A stretch of 64,000 nucleotides of DNA, taken from NCBI GenBank assembly GCA_049297675.1, contig JBAQUS010000004.1, positions 13,188 through 77,187 of the forward strand, in the 5' to 3' direction. A program made the translations under genes and the position numbers. Every line of letters starts with the position of its first letter. Position 1 is the stretch's first letter. This document shows positions 13,157-57,841 of this stretch, piece by piece. Under the pieces are notes generated by a model. It made no database searches, was not told the DNA's origin, and saw nothing but the letters and a program-made list of their open reading frames with translations. This DNA is from Minisyncoccia bacterium. Its GTDB lineage: Bacteria > Patescibacteriota > Minisyncoccia > Phycocordibacterales > DATDWN01.

Positions 13157-13436
13157 AATTTCTAGAATCAGGAAATCGGTCACAAATAATTTTCTGATGA
13201 AAATTTTCGCGACCCCGCCTCCTTCGTCTTCACTCAGTCCGGCCTTGCAAAAACATAACATGTTTTCTCACCCCTCTAAAGGCTTCAAAGGCCTCTGTTC
13301 TAGCGTGGGGCGTCTCCCAATATGCAATACAGTAACACTTTTTTTTGTCATCCTCAACTATTAGTCTAATCCAATTCACAATTACATACAAATATAAATT
13401 GATTAAACTTTAACTACTAATTAATTTACTTTGCTA

Positions 13437-13472
13437 TACACTTAACTTATGCTATAGCATAAGTTAAGTGTA
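13437..13472. promoter_or_regulatory. 36-nt perfect palindrome TACACTTAACTTATGCTA|TAGCATAAGTTAAGTGTA, 26 nt downstream of the PaaX-like gene stop
   Basis: Perfect 18+18 inverted repeat. Related to the palindrome at 14084-14130. Confidence 0.5.
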
Positions 13473-13498
13473 TGTAGTCTTAGTATAGTATTTTAAGT

Positions 13499-14071: not shown

Positions 14072-14083
14072 TATTCGAATATA

Positions 14084-14130
14084 TCATATACACTTAACTA
14101 GTGCTATAGCACTGATTAAGTGTATATGAT
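14084..14130. promoter_or_regulatory. 47-nt near-perfect palindrome TCATATACACTTAACTAGTGCTA|TAGCACTGATTAAGTGTATATGA, 13 nt upstream of the PaaX-like start; candidate operator
   Basis: 23+23 inverted repeat with one dinucleotide swap. Shares ACACTTAACT...GCTATAGC...AGTTAAGTGT with 13437-13472. Confidence 0.5.
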
Positions 14131-14280
14131 AGTTACGTAATATGCGTTAGTGTGTCTAATTCGTGTGCTAATATGTTTGTCTAGGACTATCAATAATATA
14201 TTATGAATCTATAATCAGTTTATTTATTCTGCTATTATTACAAATGTTACTAATCCTTCGTAGAATTCAAGAAAACGATA

Positions 14281-44257: not shown

Positions 44258-44580
44258 TGAGTAACAGAAATCAAAGACTAAGTGAAATTCTAAGAGATTT
44301 AGGTGCCCGTTTTCTGCTTCTTAATGGAAACAAATCCTCGCTTTTAACCGTGACAAAATTGGAATTAACAAGGGATGGAAAAAATGCTACTATTTTCTTT
44401 ACGGTTTTTCCAAATAGTTTTGAAAAAACTGCTCTTGAGTTTGCCAAGAGAAAAAGAAGTGATTTTAGAGAATTCGTTAAGGAAAATTCAAAACTAGGAC
44501 ACCTCCCCCAGTTTGATTTTGAAATTGATCTAGGAGAGAAAAACCGTCAAAAAATTGACGGATTATTAAATGAAAAATGA
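44257..44580 (+). CDS. rbfA: Ribosome-binding factor A
   Basis: Overlaps the infB stop. RLSEILRDLGARFLLLNG...LLTVTKLELTRDGKNATIFFTVF is a KH-like RbfA pattern. Confidence 0.7.
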   Translation: MSNRNQRLSEILRDLGARFLLLNGNKSSLLTVTKLELTRDGKNATIFFTVFPNSFEKTALEFAKRKRSDFREFVKENSKLGHLPQFDFEIDLGEKNRQKIDGLLNEK

Positions 44581-44650
44581 CCTAGTCGCCAAGTGGTAAG
44601 GCAAAGCTCTGCAAAAGCTTTATACGGCGGTTCGATTCCGCCCTAGGTCT
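44579..44650 (+). tRNA. tRNA-Cys (anticodon GCA)
   Basis: Acceptor GACCTAG/CTAGGTC, anticodon arm AAGCT-CTGCAAA-AGCTT, T-arm GGCGG-TTCGATT-CCGCC, discriminator U. Confidence 0.75.
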
Positions 44651-44719
44651 CCCTAAAACATTTACACAGTAAGTGTTTGGGTGAACAATTCATCCAGAGA
44701 GTTGTTGTAACCAAATTTT

Positions 44720-44801
44720 GCTCGGGTGGCGGAACTGGTATACGCGTTCGACTTAAAATCGAATCCCGAAAGGGGTATGGGTTCGATTCCCATCCCGAGC
44801 A
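44720..44801 (+). tRNA. tRNA-Leu (anticodon UAA), long variable arm
   Basis: Acceptor GCTCGGG/CCCGAGC, anticodon arm TTCGA-CTTAAAA-TCGAA, T-arm ATGGG-TTCGATT-CCCAT. Confidence 0.75.
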
Positions 44802-44850
44802 CAAAATTGAAATAAACTAAAATTAATGTTATAAATTTAAAGTAAAATTT

Positions 44851-44923
44851 GCGCCTATAGCTCAGCTGGTAGAGCAGATCCCTCTTAAGGATAAGGTCCC
44901 AGGTTCGATCCCTGGTGGGCGCA
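44851..44923 (+). tRNA. tRNA-Lys (anticodon CUU)
   Basis: D-arm TAGCTCAGCTGGTAGAGCA, anticodon loop CTCTTAA, T-arm CCAGG-TTCGATC-CCTGG, acceptor GCGCCTA/TGGGCGC. Confidence 0.7.
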
Positions 44924-44999
44924 CAAGCCGAAATAATCTAAACTGCTTTAGATTATTTCGGACTTGTGCGCAACCAGAATATACCTTTAGGTGATTCTG
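44919..44999. repeat. Two consecutive strong hairpins after tRNA-Lys: 44919-44972 (about 24-bp stem; the outer arm reuses the tRNA 3' end) and 44963-44999 (10-bp stem)
   Basis: GCGCACAAGCCGAAATAATCTAAA-CTGC-TTTAGATTATTTCGGACTTGTGCGC, then CAACCAGAAT...ATTCTGGTTG. CTTGTGCG recurs at 45016-45023. Confidence 0.5.
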
Positions 45000-45119
45000 G
45001 TTGAGGTTTCGGGCTTGTGCGTTATTAAAACATGTTTACTAAATAGTTTGAATCGTGGTTTCAAATTTGTGTGTGAAAGTAAGATAGCAATATAATGTTT
45101 TAGTTTCAAGTTAACAATT

Positions 45120-45203
45120 GGGCGAGTGGCGTAACAGTAGCCGCGCCAGTCTTAGGAACTGGTCCCGTAAGGGGTGGAGGTGCGATTCCTCTCTCGCCCA
45201 CCA
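45120..45203 (+). tRNA. tRNA-Leu (anticodon UAG), long variable arm, CCA encoded; atypical D-loop
   Basis: Acceptor GGGCGAG/CTCGCCC plus ACCA, anticodon arm CCAGT-CTTAGGA-ACTGG. The D-loop lacks the usual GG. Confidence 0.6.
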
Positions 45204-45491
45204 ATAAGGAACTAAAGGGTTCTGAATGCGAACCCAAGCGGAACGCCCGAAGGGCGTGCCAAGGATTTTCGCCTGATTCTGCAAGAGAATTCGGGAATTT
45301 TGGTGTGCAAGCGTGCAAGGTTTTTTCGTCGAGACGCAGGTTCGAGCCAAAGATTTCTTTGGCATAGACCTTTTTAGTAAAAAGATCTGAATCAGAAGCG
45401 ATTCTGTCCAATGATTCCGCGTCTTTTAGCCATTGTTGGAAAGGTGCGAGCCAATCATTCTACTTGTGTGAAAGAGAGGTCATTTCTCATC

Positions 45492-45515
45492 TGTCAAACA
45501 TCCGATGTTTGACAG
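45492..45515. repeat. REP-like palindrome TGTCAAACATC-C-GATGTTTGACA (copy 1, rayT1-associated)
   Basis: Perfect palindrome with 11-nt arms, 41 nt beyond the rayT1 stop. Confidence 0.6.
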
Positions 45516-45555
45516 TAAGTTAGGGGTAGATTATTACCGAAAATGTTAAAACTTT

Positions 45556-46215
45556 TTATACTTCAAAAGTTTTGGTGTCAGCTTTTACCCCGCTATTTTT
45601 TACAAATTTATAATATTCATATTTATCCTCAAATTGGTCTAATACTACTTCCCTTTTTAATATTTCCTTCCAACGATTTTCTGTAACGTAATCCTGATAG
45701 CTAGACCACTCATATTTTTCTGGATTATTACTCCAATGTGAAAGCTCTTTTGGATTTAAATGAACATACGCAGATAAATGTAGTAGTTGTTCATTACTTT
45801 CAACATGAACTGCTTTATACGGACCTTCAAAAAGATGCCCCGAAATTTTATATTTAGTATTGAAGTATTTTGTATACGAGTTAAGTACACGTTGCATATA
45901 TTTCCCAGTTCCACCTTCTTCATTTTCACGAACTATTAGATGAAAATGGTTAGTCATCATCGCAAAAGAAACTAGGTCAACGTATCTTTTCGAAATTATC
46001 TTTTCGTAATCATCACTGTTAATGTCAAACATCCGATGTTTGACATAATTCGAGATCATTCTTGAAACTTGAGGAAAAATAACATTTGCTTGAAAGTATA
46101 AAATGAGAAATAAAAATCTAATTCTATCTCTATCATCCTTGAAGATGATTTTCTTCCCAACTCCCCGATTATATATATGATAGTGTTCCCCAATTTCAAT
46201 ATTATCTCTTCTCAT
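45556..46215 (-). CDS. IS200-like Y1/HUH transposase, RayT (REP-associated tyrosine transposase)-type, paralog 1
   Basis: YHIYNRGV N-terminus, HUH motif HFHLIV, and Y-containing C-terminal helix (GPYKAVHVE). REP palindromes on both sides. Homologous to 54366-55043. Confidence 0.65.
   Translation of the reverse strand: MRRDNIEIGEHYHIYNRGVGKKIIFKDDRDRIRFLFLILYFQANVIFPQVSRMISNYVKHRMFDINSDDYEKIISKRYVDLVSFAMMTNHFHLIVRENEEGGTGKYMQRVLNSYTKYFNTKYKISGHLFEGPYKAVHVESNEQLLHLSAYVHLNPKELSHWSNNPEKYEWSSYQDYVTENRWKEILKREVVLDQFEDKYEYYKFVKNSGVKADTKTFEV
46022..46046. repeat. REP-like palindrome ATGTCAAACATC-C-GATGTTTGACAT (copy 2) lying inside the rayT1 coding sequence
   Basis: 12-nt arms. Encodes VKHRMFD in rayT1; the same peptide is read from the opposite strand because of the palindrome. 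Confidence 0.55.
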
Positions 46216-46240
46216 AACCTCTCATCCTACATGGACAACT

Positions 46241-46277
46241 ATCCATCTGTCAAACATCGGATGTTTGACAGATGGAT
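46241..46277. repeat. REP-like extended palindrome ATCCATCTGTCAAACATC-G-GATGTTTGACAGATGGAT (copy 3; centre inverted relative to copies 1 and 2)
   Basis: Perfect palindrome with 18-nt arms, 26 nt upstream of the rayT1 start. Confidence 0.6.
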
Positions 46278-46367
46278 AAGATCGATTATTAGAAAGGCTT
46301 GTGATTTTTTTAAAATCGATCTTGTTGCAAATAACGGCTTAATGGTGGGGGTTTTTTGACGACACCC

Positions 46368-46401
46368 TTGACTTGACTTTTGGATTTAATTGTGATAGAA
46401 T
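46368..46401 (+). promoter_or_regulatory. Near-consensus sigma-70 promoter: TTGACT (x2, overlapping), 17-nt spacer, extended -10 TGaTAGAAT
   Basis: Read directly: -35 TTGACT at 46373-46378, 17 nt, TG at 46393-94, TAGAAT at 46396-46401. It sits at the left edge of the high-GC block. Confidence 0.55.
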
Positions 46402-46499
46402 GGTGAGCAGAACGGGAGCGGCAATTCTTGCCCCTTTCGTCGCTCCTTGACACTCTAGTTTTTAGTTTACAAGCGCTTAAATGCGCAGAAGAGGTTAGC

Positions 46500-48038
46500 A
46501 TGTTTTACACTATCGCAATTTCCGTTCTCGTTGCAGTGACAATCTCGGTCCTGATCGTCGTCGGTTGGCTTATCTTCCGTGTCGTACAGACACGGAGGAG
46601 GACACCAGTCATTCATGATTGGGCGCGGAGGGATGATAGTCGCGAGACGACACCCTCCCCGACTCCTACCACGACATCCGGAATTGATGTCGACCTCACA
46701 CTGAATCCTCCCCGCCATACTCCGAAAGGAAATAGCGGAAGAGAACCCGAACCGTTGCCTCCATGTAAATGGAAAAAAGGCACGTTTCGTATCATCTACT
46801 GGGCGGTAATAATTCCGCTCGGAATGATATCTGTCTTCGTTCTGGAGTGGGGTATCCTATCGGGTCTGCCACTCACGTGGAATACCCTGTTGGAATTCAA
46901 CGCAACTTCAGTTGGGCTGACCCTTGTTGTTCTCTGGGTAGCCTACTTCTTGGACACATTCAAGATCGTCAAGTTCAATGAACTCGGCGGTCGTGTGGTA
47001 CTTGGTAGTTTCGAGTCCTACTCTGACGGGATAACTCTCGCACCGAGATGGATTACCGATCTGGTCAAGGTAACGAGAGCAACTGAAGAACTTGATCAAC
47101 CTCACAGTGACCCGTCAAAAATTTTCTGGGGAGACCTAAGCAAACTTCCAGACGGGAAAATCCCGGACGGTATGGTACTACCAATTCGTGTGCCATTCCT
47201 CCAGAGGTCAAGCGATGAAGACTTCGAAGTTCGCTGGCCACTTGAAACAGGAGAGGTCAAAACCAGAATTACAAAGGGCTATGACCTTCTTAGTGCAACG
47301 GATGCTCCTGTCGAGTATTCGATCGGAATCAGATTCATCGACATCCAACGTGTTATCGTTCGACTCAGGTCACTCAAAGCAGCCTACGACTTGGCAACAG
47401 ACTATGCAGAGACGCTCATAACGGGCACTTTGCAGAAAATGTCCGCTGCCGAAGCCCAAGTACTGAAACAGGAAATTTCAGTACATCTTGAGGAACAGAC
47501 GGACAACCGTGTTTTCCAATCGTACGGCTTCGTGATCGACTTCGTGACTTTGAAGTCAATCGGGACTTCGCACACAATCGCGGAATCGCGAGCGCAGGCG
47601 GCAGCAGCTGTCAACCTTGCGAATAAAACGGTTAGAGACGCAAAAGCTACAGCTAAGGCAACCGAACTTCAAGGTGCTTCTGTGGCTGGAGCTGAATTGG
47701 CACTACTCAACGCGAGGTCAGTAGGACTACGCAACATCGTCGACGCTGCGACTTCACGGTCAGGGGGAGTTGAACTCGCCAAAGCTATGGAAGCGGCACG
47801 CGCTATTCAGTTTGGCGCAGATTCGACAGTTGTTGTCCCAGGTGGAAACACTGGGGACGGTCTCGGACTCTTTGGCGCAGCGGTCGGTACAGCAATTAGT
47901 GCTTCGGCCGCACTTGGGAGAAAACCAGCTGGTGAAAAAGCTCTAACAGAGACCCAACCAGCACAACCAACAACTACTACAACACCCCCTGCACGTGGCG
48001 ACAGACGTGGCCATAAGAAAGGGGGTAAGAGGAGTTAG
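46500..48038 (+). CDS. SPFH/band-7 (stomatin/HflK/C-like) membrane protein, high-GC
   Basis: ATG 46500 with RBS GAAGAGG (the track ORF starts at an upstream TTG). TM helices, then VKFNELGGRVVLGSFESYSDGITLAPRWITDLVKV, then YGFVIDFVTLKSIG...AESRAQAAAAV...AEL coiled coil with Ala/Glu-rich tail. About 55% GC. Confidence 0.55.
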   Translation: MFYTIAISVLVAVTISVLIVVGWLIFRVVQTRRRTPVIHDWARRDDSRETTPSPTPTTTSGIDVDLTLNPPRHTPKGNSGREPEPLPPCKWKKGTFRIIYWAVIIPLGMISVFVLEWGILSGLPLTWNTLLEFNATSVGLTLVVLWVAYFLDTFKIVKFNELGGRVVLGSFESYSDGITLAPRWITDLVKVTRATEELDQPHSDPSKIFWGDLSKLPDGKIPDGMVLPIRVPFLQRSSDEDFEVRWPLETGEVKTRITKGYDLLSATDAPVEYSIGIRFIDIQRVIVRLRSLKAAYDLATDYAETLITGTLQKMSAAEAQVLKQEISVHLEEQTDNRVFQSYGFVIDFVTLKSIGTSHTIAESRAQAAAAVNLANKTVRDAKATAKATELQGASVAGAELALLNARSVGLRNIVDAATSRSGGVELAKAMEAARAIQFGADSTVVVPGGNTGDGLGLFGAAVGTAISASAALGRKPAGEKALTETQPAQPTTTTTPPARGDRRGHKKGGKRS

Positions 48039-48040
48039 TC

Positions 48041-49396
48041 ATGCCTATCGTCGCAATCGTTATCGTACTCCTCTTTCTCGTCTTCGGACGAAGGAAAGGA
48101 AACGATAGCAAATACATTCGAGAGTCAGAGGTCGTTGATACCAAGCCAAATGGTAAAACAGAGACGGAAAAACACACTCTGTGGTGGCACGTCGGCCACT
48201 ACAAACTCGTGTGGCTACAGCACTGGAGGAGGTCAACAACCCTCCGTGTCTCCGCCGGACTGCTTGCTTTCGGGCTGGGAGTCTGGATCTTCCCTCTAAC
48301 GAGGGAATGGTGGAGTTCGCAGTGGGTTAGCTTCGGCCTTTACCTAATTGCCGCTCTGGCCATTATCTGCCTTGGGTTCATGTTGGGCCCGGCGCAGAAA
48401 GTGCCGTTCGAGTACAGGCTCCGGCCTTTATTGCTCATCATTGGAATTGCGATCGCAGTCTACGGACTCGGTGCGAACACCAAGTTCGGTCAGAGCACCT
48501 GGTCGTGGATCGCCTCTCACTTCGGGAGAACAGATGGAAACATCGGTCTAACTCCAGAGGAGACAGCTGACCTACCGGACGGGTTCGTCGAGAGCGACAA
48601 TCCGAACCACTGGTCAAACCACGTCACCGATGAAAATCGTGATGTGGTCAACATGGTCCGGGCTGCCGTCCAGAGCGAACTTGTCCCAACCCATTGGGAC
48701 CTCGCCATGCAGATCTGCGGTATGGAATCGGCATGGTTTCGTCAGTTCGATGAGGACGGTAATGTTCTCAGAAACGTCAAAAACAATGACGGGTCAATCG
48801 ACTACGGAGTCTGTCAGATCAACTCCATATGGATGAAAAAGTCCAAGGAGTTGGGAGATGGTTTCCGGATCGACGGGCCGGCTGACGAAAACATTCGAAT
48901 GGCCATGTGGATCTGGACGAATCCAGAAACACGTGGGCCACGCGAGTGGACCGGTACGTACAACACAGCTCTTGCTGTTGTCCGCAATGCGCGGACAACG
49001 CCAGAGACTGTGAACGCACGTCGAACTCCAGAGAGGTCACCGGCTGAACAGGAGACTGTTCAGGCTGGGATCGCACTGGTCTCACAAACTGAGCCAATTC
49101 ACCAGCAACGCAACCCACAAAGAGAGGTGTCTGTCACAGCCATGTTTCCAGGATGGGTCACCGACAAGTCCTCCATGACCTGCGACCTCGAAGAGGACGC
49201 AGAAATCGAGGCGGTCGGTGAGCCTGGAATATTTTACTGGAGTGACACAAACTTCAGTACGAACATCCTAAAGCCTGGAGAAACTGCTTCACTTGCTGGA
49301 TTCAAATGCGTTGCAGTCAGATACTTTTCCCCAACGTTTGGGGGAAAACTGACTGAGGGTCAGAGCCCTTACGCAATCGTGAGACGATACAAATAA
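48041..49396 (+). CDS. 4-TM membrane protein with a lysozyme-like (C-type lysozyme/SLT-like) catalytic domain; possible VirB1-like peptidoglycan hydrolase
   Basis: MQICGMESAWF...DGSIDYGVCQINSIWMKK parallels hen lysozyme AKFESNF...DGSTDYGILQINSRWW (catalytic Glu and Asp regions). RBS AGGAG. About 55% GC. Confidence 0.55.
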   Translation: MPIVAIVIVLLFLVFGRRKGNDSKYIRESEVVDTKPNGKTETEKHTLWWHVGHYKLVWLQHWRRSTTLRVSAGLLAFGLGVWIFPLTREWWSSQWVSFGLYLIAALAIICLGFMLGPAQKVPFEYRLRPLLLIIGIAIAVYGLGANTKFGQSTWSWIASHFGRTDGNIGLTPEETADLPDGFVESDNPNHWSNHVTDENRDVVNMVRAAVQSELVPTHWDLAMQICGMESAWFRQFDEDGNVLRNVKNNDGSIDYGVCQINSIWMKKSKELGDGFRIDGPADENIRMAMWIWTNPETRGPREWTGTYNTALAVVRNARTTPETVNARRTPERSPAEQETVQAGIALVSQTEPIHQQRNPQREVSVTAMFPGWVTDKSSMTCDLEEDAEIEAVGEPGIFYWSDTNFSTNILKPGETASLAGFKCVAVRYFSPTFGGKLTEGQSPYAIVRRYK

Positions 49397-49429
49397 ACTA
49401 GAGTTAGAGAGGAGTACACATGTTCGCAT

Positions 49430-49466
49430 GAGGCCGTTACCCGATAAGGGAACGGCCTCTTTTTAT
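49430..49466 (+). terminator. Rho-independent terminator of the high-GC operon (GAGGCCGTT...AACGGCCTC plus TTTTT)
   Basis: 9-bp stem with an extra CCC/GGG inner extension and a T-run. Confidence 0.65.
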
Positions 49467-49492
49467 GCATGATGATATATAAAATTTCTCTA

Positions 49493-49525
49493 CAGAAAAC
49501 CGCTCAAGTTGTGAGCGGTTTTCTG
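49493..49525 (-). terminator. 14-bp hairpin CAGAAAACCGCTCA-AGTTG-TGAGCGGTTTTCTG, downstream of the pilin array (minus strand)
   Basis: Perfect stem. U residues lie partly within the stem. Confidence 0.5.
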
Positions 49526-49536
49526 TGACTAACTTG

Positions 49537-49827
49537 TTAATAGTTTCGTATTATAGCGTTGACTGCTGCGTTATTAGGTGCCACCCCGAAAGTGTTAAGG
49601 ACGAAGTGAACCAACCCATAAACCGAAAACATTATGACCATTCCCACTATTCCCCAGACCATGGAATCTCTGGACTCCTTTCTGGTATTTCCTTTATCGT
49701 CTGCATCAGAAGATAAAAACTTGATGGCCCCCCATACAAAGTACAGAAAGGCTATAGCAAACATGAGGAAAATCAATGGATTCAGTATAACGTTTGCTAC
49801 ATTACGTAGAAAAGGAACAATAGTCAT
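49537..49827 (-). CDS. TrbC/VirB2-like pilin paralog 1 (no signal peptide; two hydrophobic helices)
   Basis: FVWGAIKFLSSDADDKGNTRKESRDSMVWGIVGMVIMFSVYGLV conserved core shared with paralogs 2-7. Confidence 0.45.
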   Translation of the reverse strand: MTIVPFLRNVANVILNPLIFLMFAIAFLYFVWGAIKFLSSDADDKGNTRKESRDSMVWGIVGMVIMFSVYGLVHFVLNTFGVAPNNAAVNAIIRNY

Positions 49828-49852
49828 GTACTAGTTTCGTTAACTAGACTGA

Positions 49853-50206
49853 TTACAGACCTGTAACTGTTGGAACTGTACCAGTTGTGATGTTTTGAAC
49901 ACCAAATGTAGATTGTAACCATGCAACCAATCCGTAGATTGAGATCATGACTGCTATTGCAATCACACCCCAAATCATCTGGTTTCTACCTGCCTCCTGT
50001 GCCTTAGGATCCCCAGCTGAACGTAGGAATGTAACCAAGCCCCAGAAGAAGAACACTATCGCTAGACCGAAAACTATAGGGATAAGTGTTCTAACTGTTG
50101 TTGCAATGAAAGTAAGAAGTGCTTGCAAACCTGTTAAGTTTGGAGTCTGGGCGAAAGCCAAGACTGGAGCAAGAAAAGATCCTACTGAAATGACAATTTT
50201 TTTCAT
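49853..50206 (-). CDS. TrbC/VirB2-like pilin paralog 2 (signal peptide ending AFAQ)
   Basis: Signal peptide, then FFFWGLVTFLRSAGDPKAQEAGRNQMIWGVIAIAVMISIYGLVAWL. Confidence 0.5.
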   Translation of the reverse strand: MKKIVISVGSFLAPVLAFAQTPNLTGLQALLTFIATTVRTLIPIVFGLAIVFFFWGLVTFLRSAGDPKAQEAGRNQMIWGVIAIAVMISIYGLVAWLQSTFGVQNITTGTVPTVTGL

Positions 50207-50311
50207 TTTTTTGTTAATATTACGATTAATAATGCTATTATAGTACTTTTTAAAAATAATGCAAGTCCTCGGTCAAATAGACTCTGTGGATTAGTTTACT
50301 TCCAGTTATAC

Positions 50312-50689
50312 TTAGTTTGGACTAAAACATGTTTCAAAGTTAGTACAAGACTCAATACTAAAGACATTTCCAAGAAATGCCACTATTCCAAATAATGATA
50401 GAATGATGAACATGCCTATAATACCCCATAACATCCTTTGTTTTCCTTCCTCACGGGATTTAGAATCACCAGAATTTAGTACAAATTGTGCCACACCCCA
50501 TATAAAGAAAAGCAAAGCAACACTGCCTAGGATTGGTACTAATATATCAACTAAATCCTTAAATTCCTGAGCAAAAGTCTGAATAGTTTGAGCCGAAAGA
50601 ATGGTTGGAAAAATAGACCAAGACAAAGACACTACAAAAAATATTCTGCTGGTGTAACCATGAGAAAATATAAATTTTCTTACCATCAA
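50312..50689 (-). CDS. TrbC/VirB2-like pilin paralog 3 (signal peptide ending LSAQ)
   Basis: FFIWGVAQFVLNSGDSKSREEGKQRMLWGIIGMFIILSLFGIVAFL. Confidence 0.5.
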   Translation of the reverse strand: MMVRKFIFSHGYTSRIFFVVSLSWSIFPTILSAQTIQTFAQEFKDLVDILVPILGSVALLFFIWGVAQFVLNSGDSKSREEGKQRMLWGIIGMFIILSLFGIVAFLGNVFSIESCTNFETCFSPN

Positions 50690-50711
50690 AATAGTTAATG
50701 TTACAAAATTA

Positions 50712-51071
50712 TTATAAAGAAGTACAGATCATTGACCCGATTGGACACCCTGTTTGTGGTATCCCTAGAGCAGTATTTATAAATGCCACTATTCCGAATA
50801 TAGACATTATTACGAACATACCAACTACACCCCATATCATCCTTTGTTTTCCCTCTTCTCTCAGTTTGGTATCGCCAGCATTTAGAATAAATGTAGCTAC
50901 ACCCCACATAAAGAACATAAAAGCCAAACCGAAGACGATGGGTATAAGAAGTCGAACTATATTTCCGAATTCAGTCACTAGTGTTCTTACCACGGCTAGA
51001 CTCTGGGCAAAAATAAAAACAGGAAATAAAAGTTGTGGTGCATAAATTAAAAATTTTAGATTTTTCTTCAT
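50712..51071 (-). CDS. TrbC/VirB2-like pilin paralog 4 (signal peptide ending FAQ)
   Basis: FFMWGVATFILNAGDTKLREEGKQRMIWGVVGMFVIMSIFGIVAFI. Confidence 0.5.
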   Translation of the reverse strand: MKKNLKFLIYAPQLLFPVFIFAQSLAVVRTLVTEFGNIVRLLIPIVFGLAFMFFMWGVATFILNAGDTKLREEGKQRMIWGVVGMFVIMSIFGIVAFINTALGIPQTGCPIGSMICTSL

Positions 51072-51140
51072 ATTTTTTATTTATTTCTATTTATTACTAT
51101 CAGTTATGCATTATAATACATACAACACAAAAGTACAAGG

Positions 51141-51524
51141 CTAAAATCTAATGAAAACAAAGGCAGGATCAGCATCAGTAGAGCCATTCAACCCTACAGC
51201 GTTTATAACAACACCAATGATTGCTCTTACAGATAGTAGGACAAATAAAGCAATTGTTCCCCAAAGCATATATTTTCTTCCATTTTCTATTTCCGTTTTA
51301 TTTCCAGATCGAATAAAAAATTTAGAAAGACCCCAAATAAATACTAAAACAGCTAAAGAAAGAAAGGCTGGCAGGATTGTGTTGTAAATAAGTTCTCCTG
51401 TGGTGAAGGCGGCATCTCCAAATGTGCCACCCGGAGGTATAAGTTGGGCATAAGCAATAATCGGAAAAACACTGACAACAAGGTTTGAAATGAACCTGTA
51501 GTGCTTTAAAAAAAAAGTTTTCAT
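51141..51524 (-). CDS. TrbC/VirB2-like pilin paralog 5 (signal peptide ending AYAQ)
   Basis: VFIWGLSKFFIRSGNKTEIENGRKYMLWGTIALFVLLSV. Confidence 0.45.
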   Translation of the reverse strand: MKTFFLKHYRFISNLVVSVFPIIAYAQLIPPGGTFGDAAFTTGELIYNTILPAFLSLAVLVFIWGLSKFFIRSGNKTEIENGRKYMLWGTIALFVLLSVRAIIGVVINAVGLNGSTDADPAFVFIRF

Positions 51525-51536
51525 TATTGATAAATT

Positions 51537-51899
51537 TTAACCAACAGTGATTAGTTGACTAACCGTATTTCTAACCAGCTCTGATATGGCCACAGCTCCG
51601 AGGAGAATTCCTCCGCCTATGAGAGCCCAGAGAAGTCTCTGTTTTGCCTCGCCAAGTTTTTTCTCATTACCTTGGGCAGTTACAAAAGTAAAGCCTGCAT
51701 AAATAATGTACATTACAACCACCACGGCTCCTATAGGCAAAACCACGTTGTTAAGGAGTGCAGTTAAAATATCAATGAGATTGCTTCCTGCTTTGGTGGC
51801 CGGATTGGTAATGGTAATATTTTGAGCGAACAAAACTACTGGCAAAATAATATTAGCGAGTATCAGAAGAATTTTTGTGTATTTTTTATATATTTTCAT
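51537..51899 (-). CDS. TrbC/VirB2-like pilin paralog 6 (signal peptide ending LFAQ)
   Basis: MYIIYAGFTFVTAQGNEKKLGEAKQRLLWALIGGGILLGAVAI. Confidence 0.45.
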   Translation of the reverse strand: MKIYKKYTKILLILANIILPVVLFAQNITITNPATKAGSNLIDILTALLNNVVLPIGAVVVVMYIIYAGFTFVTAQGNEKKLGEAKQRLLWALIGGGILLGAVAISELVRNTVSQLITVG

Positions 51900-51903
51900 A
51901 TTA

Positions 51904-52314
51904 TTAACCTAGAAAAGTTGGAATATTATCATCTAATAATGCTGTGGTGATAAGTCTAACTAACACCCAGGCGATTATTATAATAGCAATACCCTGTACA
52001 ACTTTAAGAAGCATACCCGCGGCTTTTGCCCGCTCCGAAGCACTCTCTCCACCCATCATAAACCTAAAGCCAGCCCAAGCGATAACTATAACAGAAAAAC
52101 CTAGGGCAAACTTAGTTCCTTCGTTTGTCACTCGTCTTACGGCTCTTATCAGGTCATCAAATGTACACTCTCCTGCTATCCCACCAACTCCGGGACACTC
52201 GTAAACAAACTGGGCATGGCTTACTAGTGGTGTAAAAAGAAAAAGAAAAACAAGAAACAGGAGAATTTTTGATGCCAAATTATTTAAAAATGTACTTCTC
52301 ATTTTGTTAAACAT
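51904..52314 (-). CDS. TrbC/VirB2-like pilin paralog 7 (signal peptide ending SHAQ; Cys pair in the mature N-terminus)
   Basis: VIAWAGFRFMMGGESASERAKAAGMLLKVVQGIAIIIIAWVLV. Confidence 0.45.
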   Translation of the reverse strand: MFNKMRSTFLNNLASKILLFLVFLFLFTPLVSHAQFVYECPGVGGIAGECTFDDLIRAVRRVTNEGTKFALGFSVIVIAWAGFRFMMGGESASERAKAAGMLLKVVQGIAIIIIAWVLVRLITTALLDDNIPTFLG

Positions 52315-53603
52315 TATGATTTGATTAGAGCAGTCAGTTCTGTTTCCGCTCTGTTTAAGGCATCAGATGCTCTAGACCTTCCACTAGTTATGCTCTCAAT
52401 CATATCACGAAACAGATTTGAAGTTGCCTGTGGTTCAGGATCAATCCACGACCTGGAGATTAAGGCAGAATCATAGAATACTTGCATGTGAGCCTCTGGA
52501 GGCTTCACAGAAAGCATGTCTCTTCTTACAGGAGGTAGGTTTGTAATGCCACCTATTCCCTTTATAGCTTCGACCTCTGTCAGAGCGTTTAGGGCTATAA
52601 AGGAGGCCTGGATATTTTTGGATTGCTTTACAATGGATATACCGTAGAGATGTCCGAAAACTACTTTCTTTTTGCTATCTCTTATTTGTGGAACCGAAGT
52701 GACACCGTAATTTAGATTTGGATTTTTTTGTTGAATACCAACTAGCTCACTAGCAAAACCAAAATAAATAGCCAAATTTCCGGAGAGAAAGAAGTTGGAT
52801 GAAGATGGAAGGGACCTATTCCAGGAATATGAGACAAGGTTTGGATTAGAAAATTGGATGTAAAAATCTGTTGCTGACTGGCTCGGAGTCCTAGGATATC
52901 CGAACTGAAGGTTAAGCACTGTATCAAGCCCATTTTCCTCCCTCTGTATTATTGGTGTTCCAGCTTGGAGCATGAGCATTATGAGTAACTCCTTGGCACT
53001 TGTGATATTTCTCCATTCACCGAAAGCTATAGTTGATTGAGAAATATTGGCCTGACCGTCTTTTTTGGTGATCTTTGGAACCAAGTCTGGAATCTCGTCC
53101 CAGTATTTAGGAGGGGACGCAATAAAGTTGCTGGAGAATAAGTCTCTATTCCAATACATAACCATGGGATCAATAATGAATGGCAAAGCTAATATGCCTT
53201 CTGGAGTAAGAAACAATTCCCCTTCTTCTATAAACCTGTCCTTGAAATCCCTCTCTGGATAAAATTCCGATGGTATTGGATAAAGTTTATTTCTATTTTT
53301 GTAAACCAAATCCTCTCTAAGAATAACTATGTCTGGCCCTCTACCTTCTGCCAGAGCCTCGACAAAGTCTCTATCAAAATCTGATGGGTCCTTTCTGACA
53401 TACATCACTCTTATGTTTTTATTTCCAGAAAGTGACGAAGCTATATAAGCATTTGTAAATGCATCGTCCGAAATAGTTCCCCATGCGACTAGACCAGCAG
53501 ATACATTTGCTGTACCGGTATTTTTACTCAAGGCAAAAACCATAATACCTGCAACTATGGCCACAGAGAAGACGGCTATGACAGCTATTTTAAACGTACT
53601 CAT
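52314..53603 (-). CDS. ABC-transporter extracellular solute-binding protein, family 1 (MalE-like), TM-anchored
   Basis: N-terminal TM anchor. VMYVRKD...ALAEGRGPDIV, MYWNRDLF and WIDPEP motifs typical of SBP_bac_1. Stop/start overlap with pilin 7. Confidence 0.55.
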   Translation of the reverse strand: MSTFKIAVIAVFSVAIVAGIMVFALSKNTGTANVSAGLVAWGTISDDAFTNAYIASSLSGNKNIRVMYVRKDPSDFDRDFVEALAEGRGPDIVILREDLVYKNRNKLYPIPSEFYPERDFKDRFIEEGELFLTPEGILALPFIIDPMVMYWNRDLFSSNFIASPPKYWDEIPDLVPKITKKDGQANISQSTIAFGEWRNITSAKELLIMLMLQAGTPIIQREENGLDTVLNLQFGYPRTPSQSATDFYIQFSNPNLVSYSWNRSLPSSSNFFLSGNLAIYFGFASELVGIQQKNPNLNYGVTSVPQIRDSKKKVVFGHLYGISIVKQSKNIQASFIALNALTEVEAIKGIGGITNLPPVRRDMLSVKPPEAHMQVFYDSALISRSWIDPEPQATSNLFRDMIESITSGRSRASDALNRAETELTALIKS

Positions 53604-53640
53604 ATTCGCTGATTATAACAAGAAATCATTTTTTCTAAAA

Positions 53641-54168
53641 TTACATCTTCTTAAAGATTAATCCGTAGTGATGTGCTCCGGCGGAAATTTCCCTGTCTAT
53701 ACTAAAGCCCTGCTTTTCAAAAAGCTCTTTGGCTTTTGGTTTTTTAACAACATCGATCGGTTTTGGACCAATTCCACCGAATGAATCTGACCAGTCTATT
53801 ACCAATACCCTTCCCCCGGGTTTTAAAATTCTTTTGGCCTCTTTTATTGCCCCGACTTTATCATCTAGCTGAAAAAGAAGATTGCAAATAAAAACCAGAT
53901 CAACAGAAGAATCCCTAAGTTTTGCTCCATTTGGCTTTTCGACATTACCCCATACTACTTCTATGTTATAAAGGCCTTCTTTTGTTGAGTTATTTTTCAA
54001 TCTGGTCAGTAGCTCTTTATCTACGTCAATAGCGTAAACCCTACCAGTTGAAATGAGCGCCCTTGAAGCAGCCATGGAGTAATGTCCCGAGCCAGAACCA
54101 AAATCTGCAATATCCATCCCGGCCTGTATTCCACACTGCTCTATGTTTTTTATTGGATCGGAGAACAT
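53641..54168 (-). CDS. Class I SAM-dependent methyltransferase
   Basis: Motif I VADFGSGSGHYS. Post-I acidic residue (YAIDVD). Motif II-like LVFICNLLF. Confidence 0.65.
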   Translation of the reverse strand: MFSDPIKNIEQCGIQAGMDIADFGSGSGHYSMAASRALISTGRVYAIDVDKELLTRLKNNSTKEGLYNIEVVWGNVEKPNGAKLRDSSVDLVFICNLLFQLDDKVGAIKEAKRILKPGGRVLVIDWSDSFGGIGPKPIDVVKKPKAKELFEKQGFSIDREISAGAHHYGLIFKKM

Positions 54169-54341
54169 TGGCTAGTTATGAAGTTGAAAGTAAAAAGTTA
54201 GAAGTAATACAAACAGTATACTAACAAAATTACGTGCTATTTATTATACAACCAAAAAACCAAATCAACACTATAGTTGTTCACAAATTAGAGTTTAAAT
54301 TTTGTTAATTTTATATAAGGACTCAATATAAAAAACCTGTT

Positions 54342-54362
54342 TTACTAGGGTAACCCTAGTAA
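54342..54362. repeat. REP-like palindrome TTACTAGGG-TAA-CCCTAGTAA (rayT2-associated, downstream side), followed by TTACTAGTAA
   Basis: Perfect 9-3-9 palindrome 4 nt beyond the rayT2 stop. Confidence 0.6.
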
Positions 54363-54365
54363 TTA

Positions 54366-55043
54366 CTAGTAACTATCTTTATATTCTAACCAATCAGTTA
54401 TATTATCATTAAAATCAAAGATACTTGAAAAATACTCAGGGAAATTAGTTTTGTCTAAAATCATACCCGCTTCCCTCTTTTGTCCGACATAATCTAAATA
54501 ACTAGAACAATCATAATTCGATAGAAATTTTTTAGCTTTACTAATGTTTTTTATTCCAGATTCTTTCCAGTCATATTCAATTAATTTAACTGGATTAAGA
54601 TGAATGTAAGAAAATAAATATTTCAAATATTCATCAGAGTCAGCATGTTCTGCTTTATATGTACCCTGAAACAACGAACCCACTCTATCATTTAATTTAT
54701 TAAAGTAGGTAGAATAGCCCGTAGTCAATTTTTCCATAAACATAGCTGTACCGCCCTCAACAATTTCTCTAACAAGAATATGAAAATGATTTGGCATTAA
54801 AACCCATGCTCCTATTGCAACGAGTTGCTCGCCCCTGTTAATATCTTTCAATGGTAAGTCTATTGTTGTGCTGTACCTATAAGGAAGAGTATTGTTTGCA
54901 AGATATAAGAGTCTAATAAATCTCTTATAATCATTCTGTGAAATAAAAATATCGCGCTTTTCAACTCCTCGATTATATATATGGTAAAACTCGCCTTCAG
55001 ATATGACTATTTTTCTTTGCATAGAAGCACTATATACTAACAA
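54366..55043 (-). CDS. IS200-like Y1/HUH transposase, RayT-type, paralog 2
   Basis: FYHIYNRGV, HUH motif HFHILV, GTYKAEHAD and YIHLNP motifs. Homologous to 45556-46215. Flanked by its own palindromes. Confidence 0.65.
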   Translation of the reverse strand: MLVYSASMQRKIVISEGEFYHIYNRGVEKRDIFISQNDYKRFIRLLYLANNTLPYRYSTTIDLPLKDINRGEQLVAIGAWVLMPNHFHILVREIVEGGTAMFMEKLTTGYSTYFNKLNDRVGSLFQGTYKAEHADSDEYLKYLFSYIHLNPVKLIEYDWKESGIKNISKAKKFLSNYDCSSYLDYVGQKREAGMILDKTNFPEYFSSIFDFNDNITDWLEYKDSY

Positions 55044-55046
55044 CTC

Positions 55047-55077
55047 TCATCTTACTAGGGTAACCCTAGTAAGATGA
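55047..55077. repeat. REP-like palindrome TCATCTTACTAGGG-TAA-CCCTAGTAAGATGA (rayT2-associated, upstream side)
   Basis: Perfect 14-3-14 palindrome 4 nt upstream of the rayT2 start. Same core as 54342-54362. Confidence 0.6.
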
Positions 55078-55084
55078 AATTTTG

Positions 55085-55125
55085 ATACCATGAAGCCCTG
55101 AGACTTCATGGTCCCAGGGCTGTTA
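55085..55125 (-). terminator. Overlapping hairpins (AGCCCTG...CAGGGCT and CCATGAAG...CTTCATGG) downstream of the small high-GC ORF
   Basis: Two perfect 7-8-bp stems. Confidence 0.4.
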
Positions 55126-55133
55126 CCTGCTTT

Positions 55134-55343
55134 TTATTCTTCCTTCTCAGGTTTTTGTGGTGTGAAAGTGACAGAACCTGGGAGTTGACCTGAGGCACGT
55201 CTTTGCTGACGCACGGCTTCTTTGTAAAGTAGACATTGACGGTCAGCCTCAGCAGCATCACCACGTTCCCGTGCTTCTGACGCTCTGCACATACGAGTGA
55301 GCCACTCTGGGTTTGGTTCTGGATCAGTACCACGATTCGCCAT
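55134..55343 (-). CDS. Small hypothetical protein (69 aa), high GC (about 52%), co-oriented downstream of gyrA
   Basis: MANRGTDPEPNPEWLTRMCRASEARERGDAAEADRQCLLYKEAVRQQRRASGQ... Strong RBS GAGGAGG 7 nt upstream of the ATG. Confidence 0.4.
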   Translation of the reverse strand: MANRGTDPEPNPEWLTRMCRASEARERGDAAEADRQCLLYKEAVRQQRRASGQLPGSVTFTPQKPEKEE

Positions 55344-55372
55344 GATTAACCTCCTCAAATTTTCCACATACA

Positions 55373-57841
55373 TTATAAACAAATAAGTGAGGCAATACTA
55401 TCTCCTTCGCGGAGTTTCATGATACGGACACCTTGAGTTTGACGACCAAGAACTGGGATTTCTTTGCTGTCCACTCGGATGACTTGTGATTTTTTAGATA
55501 TTGCCACAATTTCACCTTCAACACTAGCAAAAACTTTAGCGGAAATCAGACTACCTGTTTTTGGAGTAACTTTGGCAGTTTTTATTCCCGAGCCACCGCG
55601 GTTTTGGATTTTGTATTCATCAATATCTGTGCACTTGCCATACCCGTTTGCAGAGATGACCATAACGTTTGCATTGTCTAGATCATTTGGAACTGTCTCA
55701 GCAGAAATAATCTCATCACCCTTTTTTAGTTTAATAGCCCGCACTCCCATAGCGGTTCTTCCCATCTCACGAATATCTGATTCTTTGAAATGAATGGCCT
55801 GTCCCTTGCTTGTTACAACGATAACTGTATCTTTTTTTCTAGTAAATGAAGCTGAGATGAGTGCGTCACCGTCATCTAGCTTTATTGCAATAATACCCGA
55901 AATTCGTACATCGTGAAAACTAGCAGTGGCTACTTTTTTTACTGAGCCTTGTTTAGTAACCATCATTGTTGAAGACTCTTCGCCCTTAACTTTCTTTGGC
56001 ATTGGCAAAATAGAAGTGATTTTCTCACCTTCTGAAAGTGGTAAAAAGTTCATGATTGATTTCCCACGAGTAGCCCTGCGTCCCTCTGGAATGTCATACA
56101 TTTTTGTCTGATAAACTTTTCCTCTGTTAGTAAAGAAAAGCAAATCGGAGTGAGTAGAAGTTATGAGTAGATTTGTAACAAAGTCTTCTTCTTTTGTGTC
56201 CAGGTCAATCACCCCGACTCCCCCACGTTTTTGTTTTCTAAACTCATCTGGATTGGTTCGCTTTATGTATCCACCAGCGGTCAATACTAGCGCGTTTTCC
56301 TCATCAGGAACGAGATCTTCGACGGAAAGTACTTGTGCTCCACCCTTTATTATTTTTGTGCGCCTCTCGTCACCATATTTTTCCTTAATATCTTCCGACT
56401 CTTTTTTTATTATTAAAATAACTTTCTTTGGAGAGTTTAATATGGACTTTAGTTCCTCAATCATAATCTGCACTGCCTTGAGTTCATCCTCTATCTTCTT
56501 TCTCTCAAGTCCGGCCAAACGTGAAAGCTTCATTTCCAAAATAGCATTGGCTTGAATTGACGAGAATTTAAACTCTTTCATCAATCTCATGTGAGCCTCG
56601 GGAGTATCTTTGGAAGATTTGATGAGTTTAATAATGGCATCAATATGATCGAGTGCTTTTTTCAATCCCAAAAGAATATGCTCTCTTTCCAGTGCTTTTT
56701 TGAGATCAAACTCTGTTCGTCTTTTTATTACTGTTACTCTGTGAGAAATAAATTCCTCCAAAATATCTTTTAGGGAGACTGTCTCTGGTATCCCTTTTAC
56801 GAGACCAACCATATTGTAATGAAAAGTGTCTTCGAGTTGAGTATGTTTATATAAATAATTCAGAACTGTTTGAGGATGAGCTGTACCTTTTAACTCAATA
56901 ACTATTCTTATATCTTTTGCAGACTCATCACGAATGTCTTTTATTCCCTCGACTTTTTTCTCCTTGTGAAGATCAACTATTTTTAATATTAGGTCAGCCT
57001 TGTTTACTCTAAATGGTAGCGAAGTAATAACGATTTGATACTGTCCAGATTTTGTCTCAACAACTTCTGCCATACCACGCACAACTACACCACCTTTTCC
57101 TGAAGAATAAGCATGATGCATGTCCTTAGCTCCAAAAGCTATTGCTCCTATCGGAAAATCTGGACCTTTGACGAACTGCAGAAGATCCTCTGTTGTAGCA
57201 TCTTTATTATCTGCCAAATGGATAACCGCATCCATCACTTCGTTTAGGTTATGAGGCGGAATATTTGTTGCCATTCCAACGGCAATACCTAGTGTGCCGT
57301 TTAGAAGCAAGTTAGGTACAGCGGTTGGCAAAACTTTCGGCTCCTTTTTTGTGCCGTCGTAATTTGGCACAAAATCAACAGTTTCTTTTTCAATATCGTG
57401 CAGAAGTTCGGATGCCAATTTAGTCATTTTTGCCTCCGTATAACGCATGGCTGCCGCATTGTCTCCATCAATCGAACCAAAATTTCCCTGACCTAATATG
57501 AGAGGGTAACGCATAGTAAAATCCTGCGCCATCTTAACCATTGAATCATAAACTGCTACATCACCATGCGGGTGATAATTTCCCAAAACTTCTCCGACTA
57601 CCGCAGCAGATTTTCTGGATTTGGCACCAGATGTCAATCCGAGTTCTGACATAGCAAAAAGAATTCTCCTATGCACAGGTTTTAGTCCATCACGAACATC
57701 TGGTAATGCACGATCGGTAATAACAGACATTGCATAATCTATAAAAGATGTCTTCATCTCAGAAGTTATTTCCTGCGAGATAACATTTTTTACAGCTAAA
57801 GCCGAATTGGTCTCTTCTGGATTATTTTTTTTACCTGACAT
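55373..57841 (-). CDS. gyrA: DNA gyrase subunit A
   Basis: [23 protein letters not shown], catalytic-Tyr region and C-terminal beta-pinwheel repeats. Confidence 0.9.

Follow-up and report, generated by a model that had tools for sequence, protein, structure and literature searches.

A 64-kb stretch of the genome of a Minisyncoccia bacterium (64,000 nucleotides of contig JBAQUS010000004.1, positions 13,188 to 77,187; referred to below as the window) carries two genes related to REP-associated tyrosine transposases (REP, repetitive extragenic palindromic; RAYT or RayT), here termed RayT1 and RayT2, each accompanied by palindromes of its own. The question raised by this locus is whether the two genes and their palindromes bound a mobile island, as proposed in the first-pass annotation, or are separate elements. 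The answer reached here, which we hold to be probable, is that they constitute two independent one-gene units of ~0.75 kb rather than an island, each consisting of a RayT-like HUH/Y1 single-stranded DNA (ssDNA) nuclease gene with its own hairpin 5′ and 3′, and that each nuclease would cut and copy its cognate hairpin. The components of the two units are as follows.

45491-45515, no strand: palindrome 1, copy 3′ of RayT1, with 12-nt arms and a 1-nt loop; ssDNA fold of -10.4 kcal/mol, z -5.9
45556-46215, reverse strand: RayT1, HUH/Y1 nuclease gene, 219 aa; NHFH at residues 89-92, Y150 in YVHLNP, WSSYQDY tail
46022-46046, no strand: palindrome 1, in-frame copy within RayT1, encoding V58-K-H-R-M-F-D64 in the loop before the HUH strand
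46240-46278, no strand: palindrome 1, copy 5′ of RayT1, with 19-nt arms; ssDNA fold of -18.2 kcal/mol
54341-54363, no strand: palindrome 2, copy 3′ of RayT2, with perfect 9-nt arms and a TAA loop; an additional half-site, TTACTAG, comes directly after it
54366-55022, reverse strand: RayT2, HUH/Y1 nuclease gene, 218 aa; NHFH, YIHLNP and CSSYLDY, no in-gene palindrome; Pfam score of 23.8 bits
55047-55077, no strand: palindrome 2, copy 5′ of RayT2, with 14-nt arms; ssDNA fold of -13.2 kcal/mol, z -7.5

RayT1 and RayT2 are encoded on the same strand at a distance of 8.8 kb and align with 38% identity over 193 aa (E 6e-34); both contain the motifs YHIYNRGV, NHFH, YKA and HLNP; the first-pass description of a homologous, same-strand HUH/Y1 pair was therefore correct. 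The start of RayT2 may be read as TTG (54366-55043, 225 aa) or as ATG (54366-55022, 218 aa), the latter being used by public gene callers. Scores against Pfam Y1_Tnp (PF01797), the check that had been suggested for the pair, are 30.1 and 23.8 bits, respectively, with a gathering threshold of 23 that RayT2 barely exceeds. Residues N89-H-F-H92 and Y150 of RayT1 are invariant in an alignment of 21 sequences, as are NHFH and Y[VI]HLNP in the family alignment. An AlphaFold2 model of RayT1 computed from 21 homologs (predicted local distance difference test, 85.9; predicted TM-score, 0.85) places HFH on a strand comprising residues 90-97 and Y150 on a helix extending from residue 141 to 156. Foldseek searches with this model revealed that the best match in the PDB is the complex of E. 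coli RayT with a REP hairpin (PDB code 4ER8; E 1.4e-5, TM 0.66 normalised to the target), followed at ~1e-3 by the ISDra2 and IS608 TnpA proteins (2XM3 and 2VJV among the matches). The fold search was needed, as a sequence search of the PDB returned only marginal ISDra2 matches (E ~0.5). No Pfam match at E <= 0.01 was obtained for a C-terminal helix-turn-helix (HTH)-like domain (Bac_DnaA_C, HTH_23, HTH_28), and past residue 173 the model displays short helices only.

The closest published description is that of TnpA-Y1 subclass 2.1, for which the key motifs are NH[YF]H, FQ, Y[IV]HLNP and SS in the proximal tail, with a median length of 238 aa (PMC6006769); the subclass is equivalent to Group 1 of Bertels (PMC5581495) and to most of the TIRYTs of Di Nocera (PMC3733652). 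RayT1 and RayT2 contain, respectively, NHFH in both cases, LFEGPY/LFQGTY (FQ in most homologs), YVHLNP/YIHLNP and WSSYQDY/CSSYLDY, in proteins of 218-219 aa. By this signature, which was checked visually against Table 1 of PMC6006769 (Quentin et al. 2018) rather than against the hidden Markov models of its authors, both proteins appear to match subclass 2.1 and neither the E. coli-type subclass 2.2 nor IS200 (Y...Q). The term RayT-like is thus justified by Y1_Tnp, by 4ER8 as best fold and by the class-2 Y..NP motif, although the proteins remain below the NCBIfam RayT cut-off and their hairpins lack a GTAG tag. Homologs number 1,256 for RayT1 (E <= 1e-5) and at least 7,908 for RayT2 (E <= 1e-10); in both sets the named ones are nearly all bacteria of the candidate phyla radiation (CPR), and many are found on contigs of ~1 kb. 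In the window itself no further RayT genes were detected beyond chance.

Palindrome 1, TGTCAAACATC[C/G]GATGTTTGACA, occurs exactly three times in the 64 kb, at 45492, 46023 and 46248, the last belonging to the longer 19-nt-arm form that begins at 46240. Palindrome 2 has the core TTACTAGGG-TAA-CCCTAGTAA and two copies, at 54341 and 55051; the one at 55051-55073 is perfect (14-nt arms from 55047), and the one at 54341-54363 has perfect 9-nt arms with two differing outermost bases. That each gene lies between copies of its own palindrome, as first annotated, is confirmed, with the positions 46022 and 46241 corrected to 46023 and 46248 and perfection lost for the outermost bases at 54341; the location of the 46023 copy within the RayT1 coding sequence had not been remarked. 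All five copies are predicted to fold into stable ssDNA hairpins (-7 to -18 kcal/mol). When up to three mismatches were allowed, no other copy of either palindrome was found in the 64 kb, none of 100 shuffled sequences reached the palindrome 1 pattern, and half-sites and degenerate copies were not enriched in the window beyond chance. Two copies coincide with candidate expression signals: the right arm of the 5′ copy of palindrome 1 supplies a TTGACA -35 box, followed 18 nt later by TAGGAT and then by the start codon region, and the palindrome 2 copy at 55047-55077 fits a terminator-like scan on both strands.

The association of gene and hairpin was examined in 80 further loci (L006-L085), which were drawn from the matches listed in a protein-pattern scan with one genome per species and no DNA-repeat criterion, and which do not include the source metagenome-assembled genome (MAG). 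Of 78 loci, 48 have a perfect hairpin (stem >= 9 bp) no more than 130 bp upstream of the gene, and 36 of 79 have one no more than 130 bp downstream; the corresponding rate in 7,911 control windows taken from these loci is 2.3%. In 25 of 34 loci the upstream arm and the downstream arm agree at all of their inner 8 nt (mean 6.9 of 8, against 3.2 of 8 after permutation), and 43 distinct upstream arms occur among the 80 loci; hairpins therefore match within a locus and differ between loci. RayT2-type genes follow the same pattern, as illustrated by L120, with AATACATAGGAC.c.GTCCTATGTATT 51 nt before the start and again 21 nt after the stop, by L117, with a CTAGGGTtACCCTAG core related to palindrome 2, and by RayT2 homologs of 64-65% identity, which reside in other genomic contexts with flanking hairpins of their own. 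The pairing of each gene with a private palindrome, proposed at first for the two window genes, is thus a family-wide rule.

Extra half-sites, in the form of iterated single arms, often adjoin the full hairpins (L006, +677; L008, +676/+723; L075, +712; L117, upstream; L120, downstream); in the window an example is TTACTAG (54364-54375), just past the 3′ copy of palindrome 2. Such half-sites look like repeated binding sites or like products of slippage. In another CPR genome (JBBTTI010000001.1), the loci L052 and L056 comprise two RayT paralogs of 72% identity, on the same strand and ~22 kb apart, which share a single hairpin family, GTTAGACGC, with a solo copy 1.4 kb from one of them.

The copy of palindrome 1 inside RayT1 is in frame and spans codons 58-64 (V58-K-H-R-M-F-D64). 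In the structural model, V58-D64 lies in or next to the sole low-confidence internal segment (residues 52-59), a loop that precedes the HUH strand. Covariation along the 9-bp stem was measured in 47 genes of the RayT1 clade, taken without selection and aligned by codon. Standard base pairs are found in 71.6% of cells, compared with 34-51% for slid partners, and double-sided changes number 51, compared with 24 in shuffled data (0 of 500 shuffles reaching the observed count). These compensatory changes alter the protein: CAT/ATG to CAC/GTG replaces Met by Val and GTC/GAC to GTT/AAC replaces Asp by Asn, so that the encoded peptide varies with the hairpin (VKHRVFD, VKSSAFN, VQSRALD). The hairpin is present in ~27 of the 47 genes, while the remainder have unrelated sequence of equal length at that spot; because these genes keep the same length, the hairpin is a replacement and not an added insertion. 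In 12 of 38 loci the in-gene arm shares a stretch of 9 nt or more with the flanking arm of its own locus, against an expectation of 1.6 and a maximum of 6 in 1,000 permutations. Conservation of VKHRVFD for protein reasons alone was considered and rejected, since third codon positions covary with non-synonymous changes on the opposite arm. A few distant members have a further in-gene copy close to the Y motif, at +442 to +468.

Copies away from RayT genes were also encountered. The flanks of the relatives' genes, ~809 kb in total, contain 14 extra hairpin copies (~1 per 58 kb), which are mostly intergenic and located just beyond a gene end, some of them paired or with extra half-sites. As a proxy for a genome-wide count in this organism, JGI metagenomes were scanned for exact palindrome 1, giving 39 occurrences in 31 contigs, 17 of them at RayT1-type genes and 22 elsewhere; of these 22, 11 lie more than 800 bp from both contig ends and are thus solo copies, one of which abuts a tRNA. 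Low-copy dispersal therefore appears real for the family and is far below the abundance of classical REPs or bacterial interspersed mosaic elements (BIMEs). A broader proposal, to which we attach only tentative belief, is that CPR/Patescibacteria possess a previously undescribed and very large REP-RAYT-type system, kept at very low copy number in streamlined genomes, in which the recognition hairpin is embedded in the reading frame of the nuclease at a fixed pre-HUH site, is identical to the flanking copies and dictates 7-8 residues. The in-gene copy might then function in cis, in self-limitation or autoregulation or as a source of sequence when hairpins are replaced.

The island proposal concerns the DNA between and beside the two units, for which the remaining features are listed below. 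L130 denotes the locus of GCA_021733565.1 and the other L numbers those of further relatives; SBP, solute-binding protein; T4SS, type IV secretion system; GC1 and GC3, GC content at first and third codon positions.

44579-45203, forward strand: tRNA cluster Cys(gca), Leu(taa), Lys(ctt), Leu(tag), from ARAGORN and Rfam; conserved left border of the variable spot
45204-45490, no strand: spacer, 288 nt, 44% GC, part of the variable segment; no homology to L130
46373-46460, forward strand: TTGACT-17-TAGAAT promoter-like site and leader hairpin ahead of the GC-rich operon, both conserved in L130; right border of the variable spot
46500-49396, forward strand: GC-rich two-gene operon, distinguished by GC and GC3; position beside the pilin array kept in relatives
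49537-52314, reverse strand: seven T4SS_pilin-type small membrane protein genes (Pfam PF18895); conserved core synteny
52314-53603, reverse strand: SBP (SBP_bac_1, 54 bits); adjoins gyrA in relatives, 84% identical in L130
53641-54168, reverse strand: class I S-adenosylmethionine-dependent methyltransferase; at this site only where a RayT is also present (window, L060)
55134-55343, reverse strand: 69-aa open reading frame (ORF) in the gyrA-SBP junction; 51% GC, GC1 0.69; predicted by public gene callers too
55373-57841, reverse strand: gyrA; conserved right border, directly followed by SBP in L012, L017 and L050

The order S1 - lactamase_B - gyrA - SBP is kept in L012, L017, L018, L024, L030, L050 and L060, and the pilin array follows SBP in all loci that reach far enough (L012, L017, L050, L060). 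From the gyrA stop to the SBP start there are 17-46 nt in L012, L017 and L050. The left side is best resolved by L130, where no RayT was found in the locus and where tRNA-Gly, tRNA-Lys(ctt) and tRNA-Leu(tag) are followed by 3.6 kb of unrelated genes, a Band_7 (390 aa) and an SLT-like gene (483 aa), and a convergent set of seven pilins and SBP. The four tRNAs noted at first on the left flank (Cys, Leu-taa, Lys-ctt and Leu-tag, 44579-45203) are indeed present, tRNA-Lys and tRNA-Leu(tag) being conserved in L130 at the nucleotide level. Homology between the window and L130 stops at the 3′ end of tRNA-Leu (45203) and resumes at ~46330-46350, within the promoter-leader region of the GC-rich operon; the left variable segment thus extends from 45204 to ~46340 and comprises the 288 nt and the RayT1 unit. 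An Rfam search with the 45204-45490 spacer returned nothing at gathering score, the best sub-threshold match having an E of ~0.1, and the 69-aa ORF located between gyrA and the RayT2 5′ hairpin (55134-55343) has no family match.

The operon had at first been described as compositionally foreign. The region 46.3-49.4 kb does stand out, with 50-56% GC against 37% for the window and GC3 of 0.48 and 0.60 against 0.27-0.36 in core genes, while the pilin array, SBP and methyltransferase have background composition. However, the same slot is GC-rich in L130, L012, L017 and L060: the Band_7 and SLT-like genes of L130 have 51-55% GC against 36%, and the slot convergent on the pilin array exceeds background by 10-15 GC points in L012, L017 and L060. 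The foreign-looking composition is, in this case, a conserved property of a positional operon. Its first gene encodes a membrane protein of 512/536 aa, for which the homology search returned only the protein itself; the second encodes a 451-aa membrane protein with a lytic-transglycosylase-like motif (recognised by eye and via the relative P0244), which has 25 relatives among 1.84e9 representatives and a 47% identical one in L130. Neither protein gave a significant match in Pfam or PHROGs, the best being Band_7 with an E of 0.25. Across relatives the interval 45.5-55.1 kb is conserved in synteny and composition, and only the RayT units and small neighbours vary; an empty site was not found. 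The 8 kb between the RayT genes is therefore conserved chromosomal synteny and not a mobile island.

Five such slots lie 10-18 GC points above their genomes (window, 46300-49400; L012, 9500-11075; L017, 17000-18369; L060, 14500-16000; L130, 4500-7000) and encode fast-evolving membrane proteins, SPFH-like and lytic-transglycosylase-like. In the operon leader (window, 46373-46460; L130, 4197-4307), the promoter-like site and the leader hairpin GGAGCGGCAATTCTTGCCCCTTTCGTCGCTCC are ~80-90% conserved, and the first gene behind it is unrecognisably different, encoding a 536-aa protein with no detectable relatives in the window and the 390-aa Band_7 protein in L130. This could represent a conserved regulatory leader preceding a hypervariable gene.

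The junction between gyrA and SBP, in which RayT2 resides, is variable as well. It contains the 69-aa ORF, RayT2 and the methyltransferase in the window (53641-55372); an ORF with an HD-phosphohydrolase-like motif (recognised by eye), a RayT and a methyltransferase in L060 (9173-11246); and a RayT alone, on the opposite strand, in L018 (13316-14034), where the gene is bracketed by TGTCAAAGAC.c.GTCTTTGACA, beginning 5 nt past the gyrA stop. The three junction RayTs are only 31-32% identical to one another and represent separate lineages, since in the same loci gyrA is ~67% identical to that of the window and S1-adjacent RayT orthologs are ~70% identical mutually. The gyrA-SBP junction is thus a recurrent landing spot that accepts either orientation. 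A second site is the 3′ end of the S1 gene, which adjoins a RayT in L012, L017, L023 and L050; those of L012, L017 and L050 are the ~70% identical orthologs, and their hairpins differ. Beside the S1 gene of the window no RayT remnant was found, only two small ORFs. The start of the SBP gene reads ATGTC[AC]AA(G/T)TTTCA in L012 (~6440), L017 (~13520), L050 (~10105) and L024 (~19575); its likeness to the TGTCAAA... foot of RayT1-clade hairpins, among them the hairpin inserted immediately upstream in L018, may be a coincidence or a hint of target preference.

By analogy with E. coli RayT and IS200/IS608 TnpA, each enzyme would bind its own hairpin on single-stranded DNA and cut or join at its foot. 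The flanking, in-gene and solo copies would be both products and substrates of this activity; either it or conversion between copies would keep hairpins uniform within a locus, and hairpin and enzyme would drift together between lineages. Because an arm of the RayT1 5′ hairpin is the TTGACA -35 box of a promoter-like site, binding or extrusion of that hairpin would probably feed back on the transcription of RayT1. The units occupy two variable intergenic junctions, from tRNA-Leu(tag) to the promoter of the GC-rich operon and from gyrA to SBP.

Several alternatives were weighed against two independent units. A composite island, in which the two RayTs and their palindromes delimit, mobilise or have by recombination assembled a 9.6-kb accessory block beside a tRNA hotspot, would account for two same-strand genes 8.8 kb apart next to four tRNAs, for the foreign-like GC and GC3 at 46.3-49.4 kb, and for the similar layout in another CPR genome, H14-bin043_1, where two same-strand paralogs are ~22 kb apart. 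Yet in L012, L017, L050 and L130, which have no RayT at these borders, the genes presumed to be cargo keep their synteny with gyrA, S1 and the tRNA cluster; the GC excess recurs in the same slot of relatives, and the L018 junction holds a 0.7-kb RayT unit alone. Matched ends for one enzyme are also missing, because the hairpins of the two units are unrelated and the enzymes only 38% identical, and neither an integrase ORF in the window nor direct repeats at the outer borders were found. We regard the island as having next to no probability. A pair of autonomous IS200-like insertion sequences (ISs), moving whole as hairpin-gene-hairpin units via a single-stranded circle and landing independently in two permissive intergenic sites, comes closer to the observations and is nevertheless judged rather unlikely. 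The ~0.75-kb unit is bounded by hairpins on both sides and carries no passenger gene; single units are present or absent at the gyrA-SBP junction, in three unrelated lineages and either orientation; homologs of 65-68% identity sit in unrelated genomic contexts; many homologs occur on ~1-kb contigs; and in each of 74 loci the RayT-type gene has a higher AT content than its flanks, the mean difference being 7.4 points (random 650-bp windows, +0.8 +/- 3.6). Identical multi-copy sets are, however, absent: paralogs within a genome are 38% (window) or 52-71% (other genomes) identical and never near-identical, and the P0098 cluster has one context in 8 contigs. The S1-adjacent orthologs (~70%) have diverged from one another about as much as relatives' gyrA genes from that of the window (66-73% identity), the motif is the class-2 Y..NP rather than the Y...Q of IS200 in the table of PMC6006769, solo hairpins and an in-gene copy are not IS200 features, and no RayT relatives were found in IMG/VR viral contigs. 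The GC content of the RayT gene tracks that of its host (r = 0.81). Behaviour is thus single-copy and largely vertical, and the evidence on insertion sequence versus domesticated gene is mixed.

The palindromes might also be unrelated to the nuclease activity and act as common regulatory elements of DNA or RNA (operators, bidirectional terminators or mRNA stabilisers). The overlap of the RayT1 5′ copy with a promoter-like site, the terminator-like character of palindrome 2 at 55047-55077 on both strands, and perfect dyad symmetry, which also fits dimeric proteins that bind double-stranded DNA, are in line with such a role. It fails to explain why one sequence recurs 5′, 3′ and within the gene and changes in step between loci, or why solo copies lie far from any RayT gene; most copies have no T tract, and among solved structures the nearest is that of a RayT in complex with just such a hairpin. 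This explanation is accordingly given a very low probability. Two independent RayT-like units remain the preferred reading, and a number of observations weigh against it. Neither palindrome is dispersed within the 64-kb window, so that the REP-like part rests on relatives, and the solo copies in those relatives could be scars of gene deletion by recombination between identical flanking copies instead of dispersal, because a perfect palindrome is a direct and an inverted repeat at once. A published survey reported no REP-like sequences around subclass 2.1 genes (PMC6006769). The NCBIfam RayT equivalog NF047646 scores 27.8 bits with RayT1 and 40.3 with RayT2, short of its cut-off of 80, and no 5′ GT[AG]G tag was found at the hairpin foot in the window or in the relatives' copies (feet TGTC..., CTTAC... 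and similar). Loop orientation in upstream versus downstream copies follows no rule (13 same, 8 inverted), and therefore IS-type (direct) and REPtron-type (inverted) layouts are indistinguishable in this way. The presence of three lineages independently in one junction argues for mobility of the whole unit, more IS-like than expected of a domesticated RayT. Finally, cleavage and copying by RayT1 and RayT2 are inferred from analogy.

The arrangement may be compared with known systems, of which the REPtron is reportedly a RayT/TnpA-REP gene located between cognate REPs, of the E. coli yafM type (Nunvar 2010, Ton-Hoang 2012, Messing 2012). The window units resemble it in having an HUH/Y1 enzyme with the class-2 Y..NP motif and 4ER8 as best fold, in the bracketing of the gene by its own palindrome family, in mostly single-copy, vertical inheritance, and in the presence in one genome of two paralogs each with its own family, as described in PMC6006769. 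They differ in the hairpins, perfect dyads with short loops that carry no GT[AG]G tag and, in the RayT1 clade, have a TGT...ACA foot; in very low copy number (none outside the genes in 64 kb and ~1 per 58 kb in relatives' flanks, against hundreds); and in the proteins themselves, which have ~220 aa, 28-40 bits against the 80-bit NCBIfam cut-off, and NHFH rather than DHLH. With TIRtrons/TIRYTs the units share NH[YF]H, FQ, Y[IV]HLNP and the SS tail, a length near the 238-aa median, flanking inverted sequences that are unrelated to GTAG REPs, some of them wholly self-complementary and some forming moderately abundant families, and behaviour between an IS and a housekeeping gene, which has been reported for Group 1 RAYTs (PMC5581495). 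In contrast with the published terminal inverted repeat consensus GGGGWSAS, perfect hairpins are found here at fixed distances by nearly every gene, together with an in-gene copy; RayT1 and RayT2 have no evident long C-terminal HTH (DnaA_C-like) domain, and the hosts are CPR/Patescibacteria.

Subclass 2.4 offers a precedent for in-frame REPs inside tnpA-REP (PMC6006769). As in that group, the cognate palindrome lies within the coding sequence of the enzyme, with the frame intact and in a peripheral or flexible region; in RayT1, unlike subclass 2.4, the site is fixed at codons ~57-64 before HuH, adds no length and covaries base by base with the flanks. IS200 TnpA (subclass 1.1) has ~150 aa, Y...Q and several near-identical copies per genome, at 99% identity (table in PMC6006769). 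The window units are likewise one-gene elements of ~0.7 kb with hairpins near both ends, Y1 ssDNA chemistry by homology and no target duplication, and are set apart by Y.HLNP, by single divergent copies (38% for the window pair) and by solo hairpins. The identification as RayT-like genes with cognate palindromes is thus supported, with the qualification that they are subclass 2.1/TIRYT-like, have no GTAG tag and are low in copy number. No report connecting RAYT- or IS200-type genes with CPR/Patescibacteria turned up in full-text searches of a literature collection.

These results remove a false lead, as the T4SS-pilin array, SBP and GC-rich operon of the window belong to the chromosomal core of the Minisyncoccia/Paceibacteria lineage and are not RayT-mobilised cargo. 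They point to thousands of RayT-like genes in ultra-small CPR genomes with one strict architecture, in which a private perfect hairpin is placed 5′, 3′ and often within the gene. The new content is this CPR-wide architecture and the covarying in-frame hairpin, published Y1 surveys having reported no REP-like hairpins for this signature. Many natural enzyme/hairpin pairs, including the two unrelated ones of the window, provide a specificity panel for the reading of ssDNA hairpins by HUH/Y1 enzymes and for co-evolution, and the in-gene copy is a clear case of nucleic-acid structure constraining protein sequence.

Some observations concern the window and its assembly. The interval from RayT2 to RayT1 is wholly spanned in three independent Logan assemblies. 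Exact-protein look-ups matched the same population only (MAG GCA_049296155.1; Logan SRR28011701, SRR28011830 and SRR28011841), and an Rfam scan of the window returned only tRNAs. Two NCBI MAG contigs meet at 49412-49419 (62,628 + 20,598 - 8 = 83,218, the length of the longest contig bearing these proteins). The MAG seems to have been broken where GC content jumps, between two convergent terminators, and the join looks real because three independent Logan assemblies span that point. Three Logan contigs from different runs all end at ~44890-44897, inside tRNA-Lys, a gene which, if common to co-occurring relatives, could break the assembly graph there. Elsewhere in the window, a PaaX-like regulator gene (13499-14071, reverse strand) is bracketed by another private palindrome family (sites 13436-13473 and 14069-14144), ATACACTTAACTxxTGCTA..., which forms perfect arms of 19 nt on one side of the gene and an imperfect dyad of 42 nt on the other and is unrelated to the RayT hairpins.

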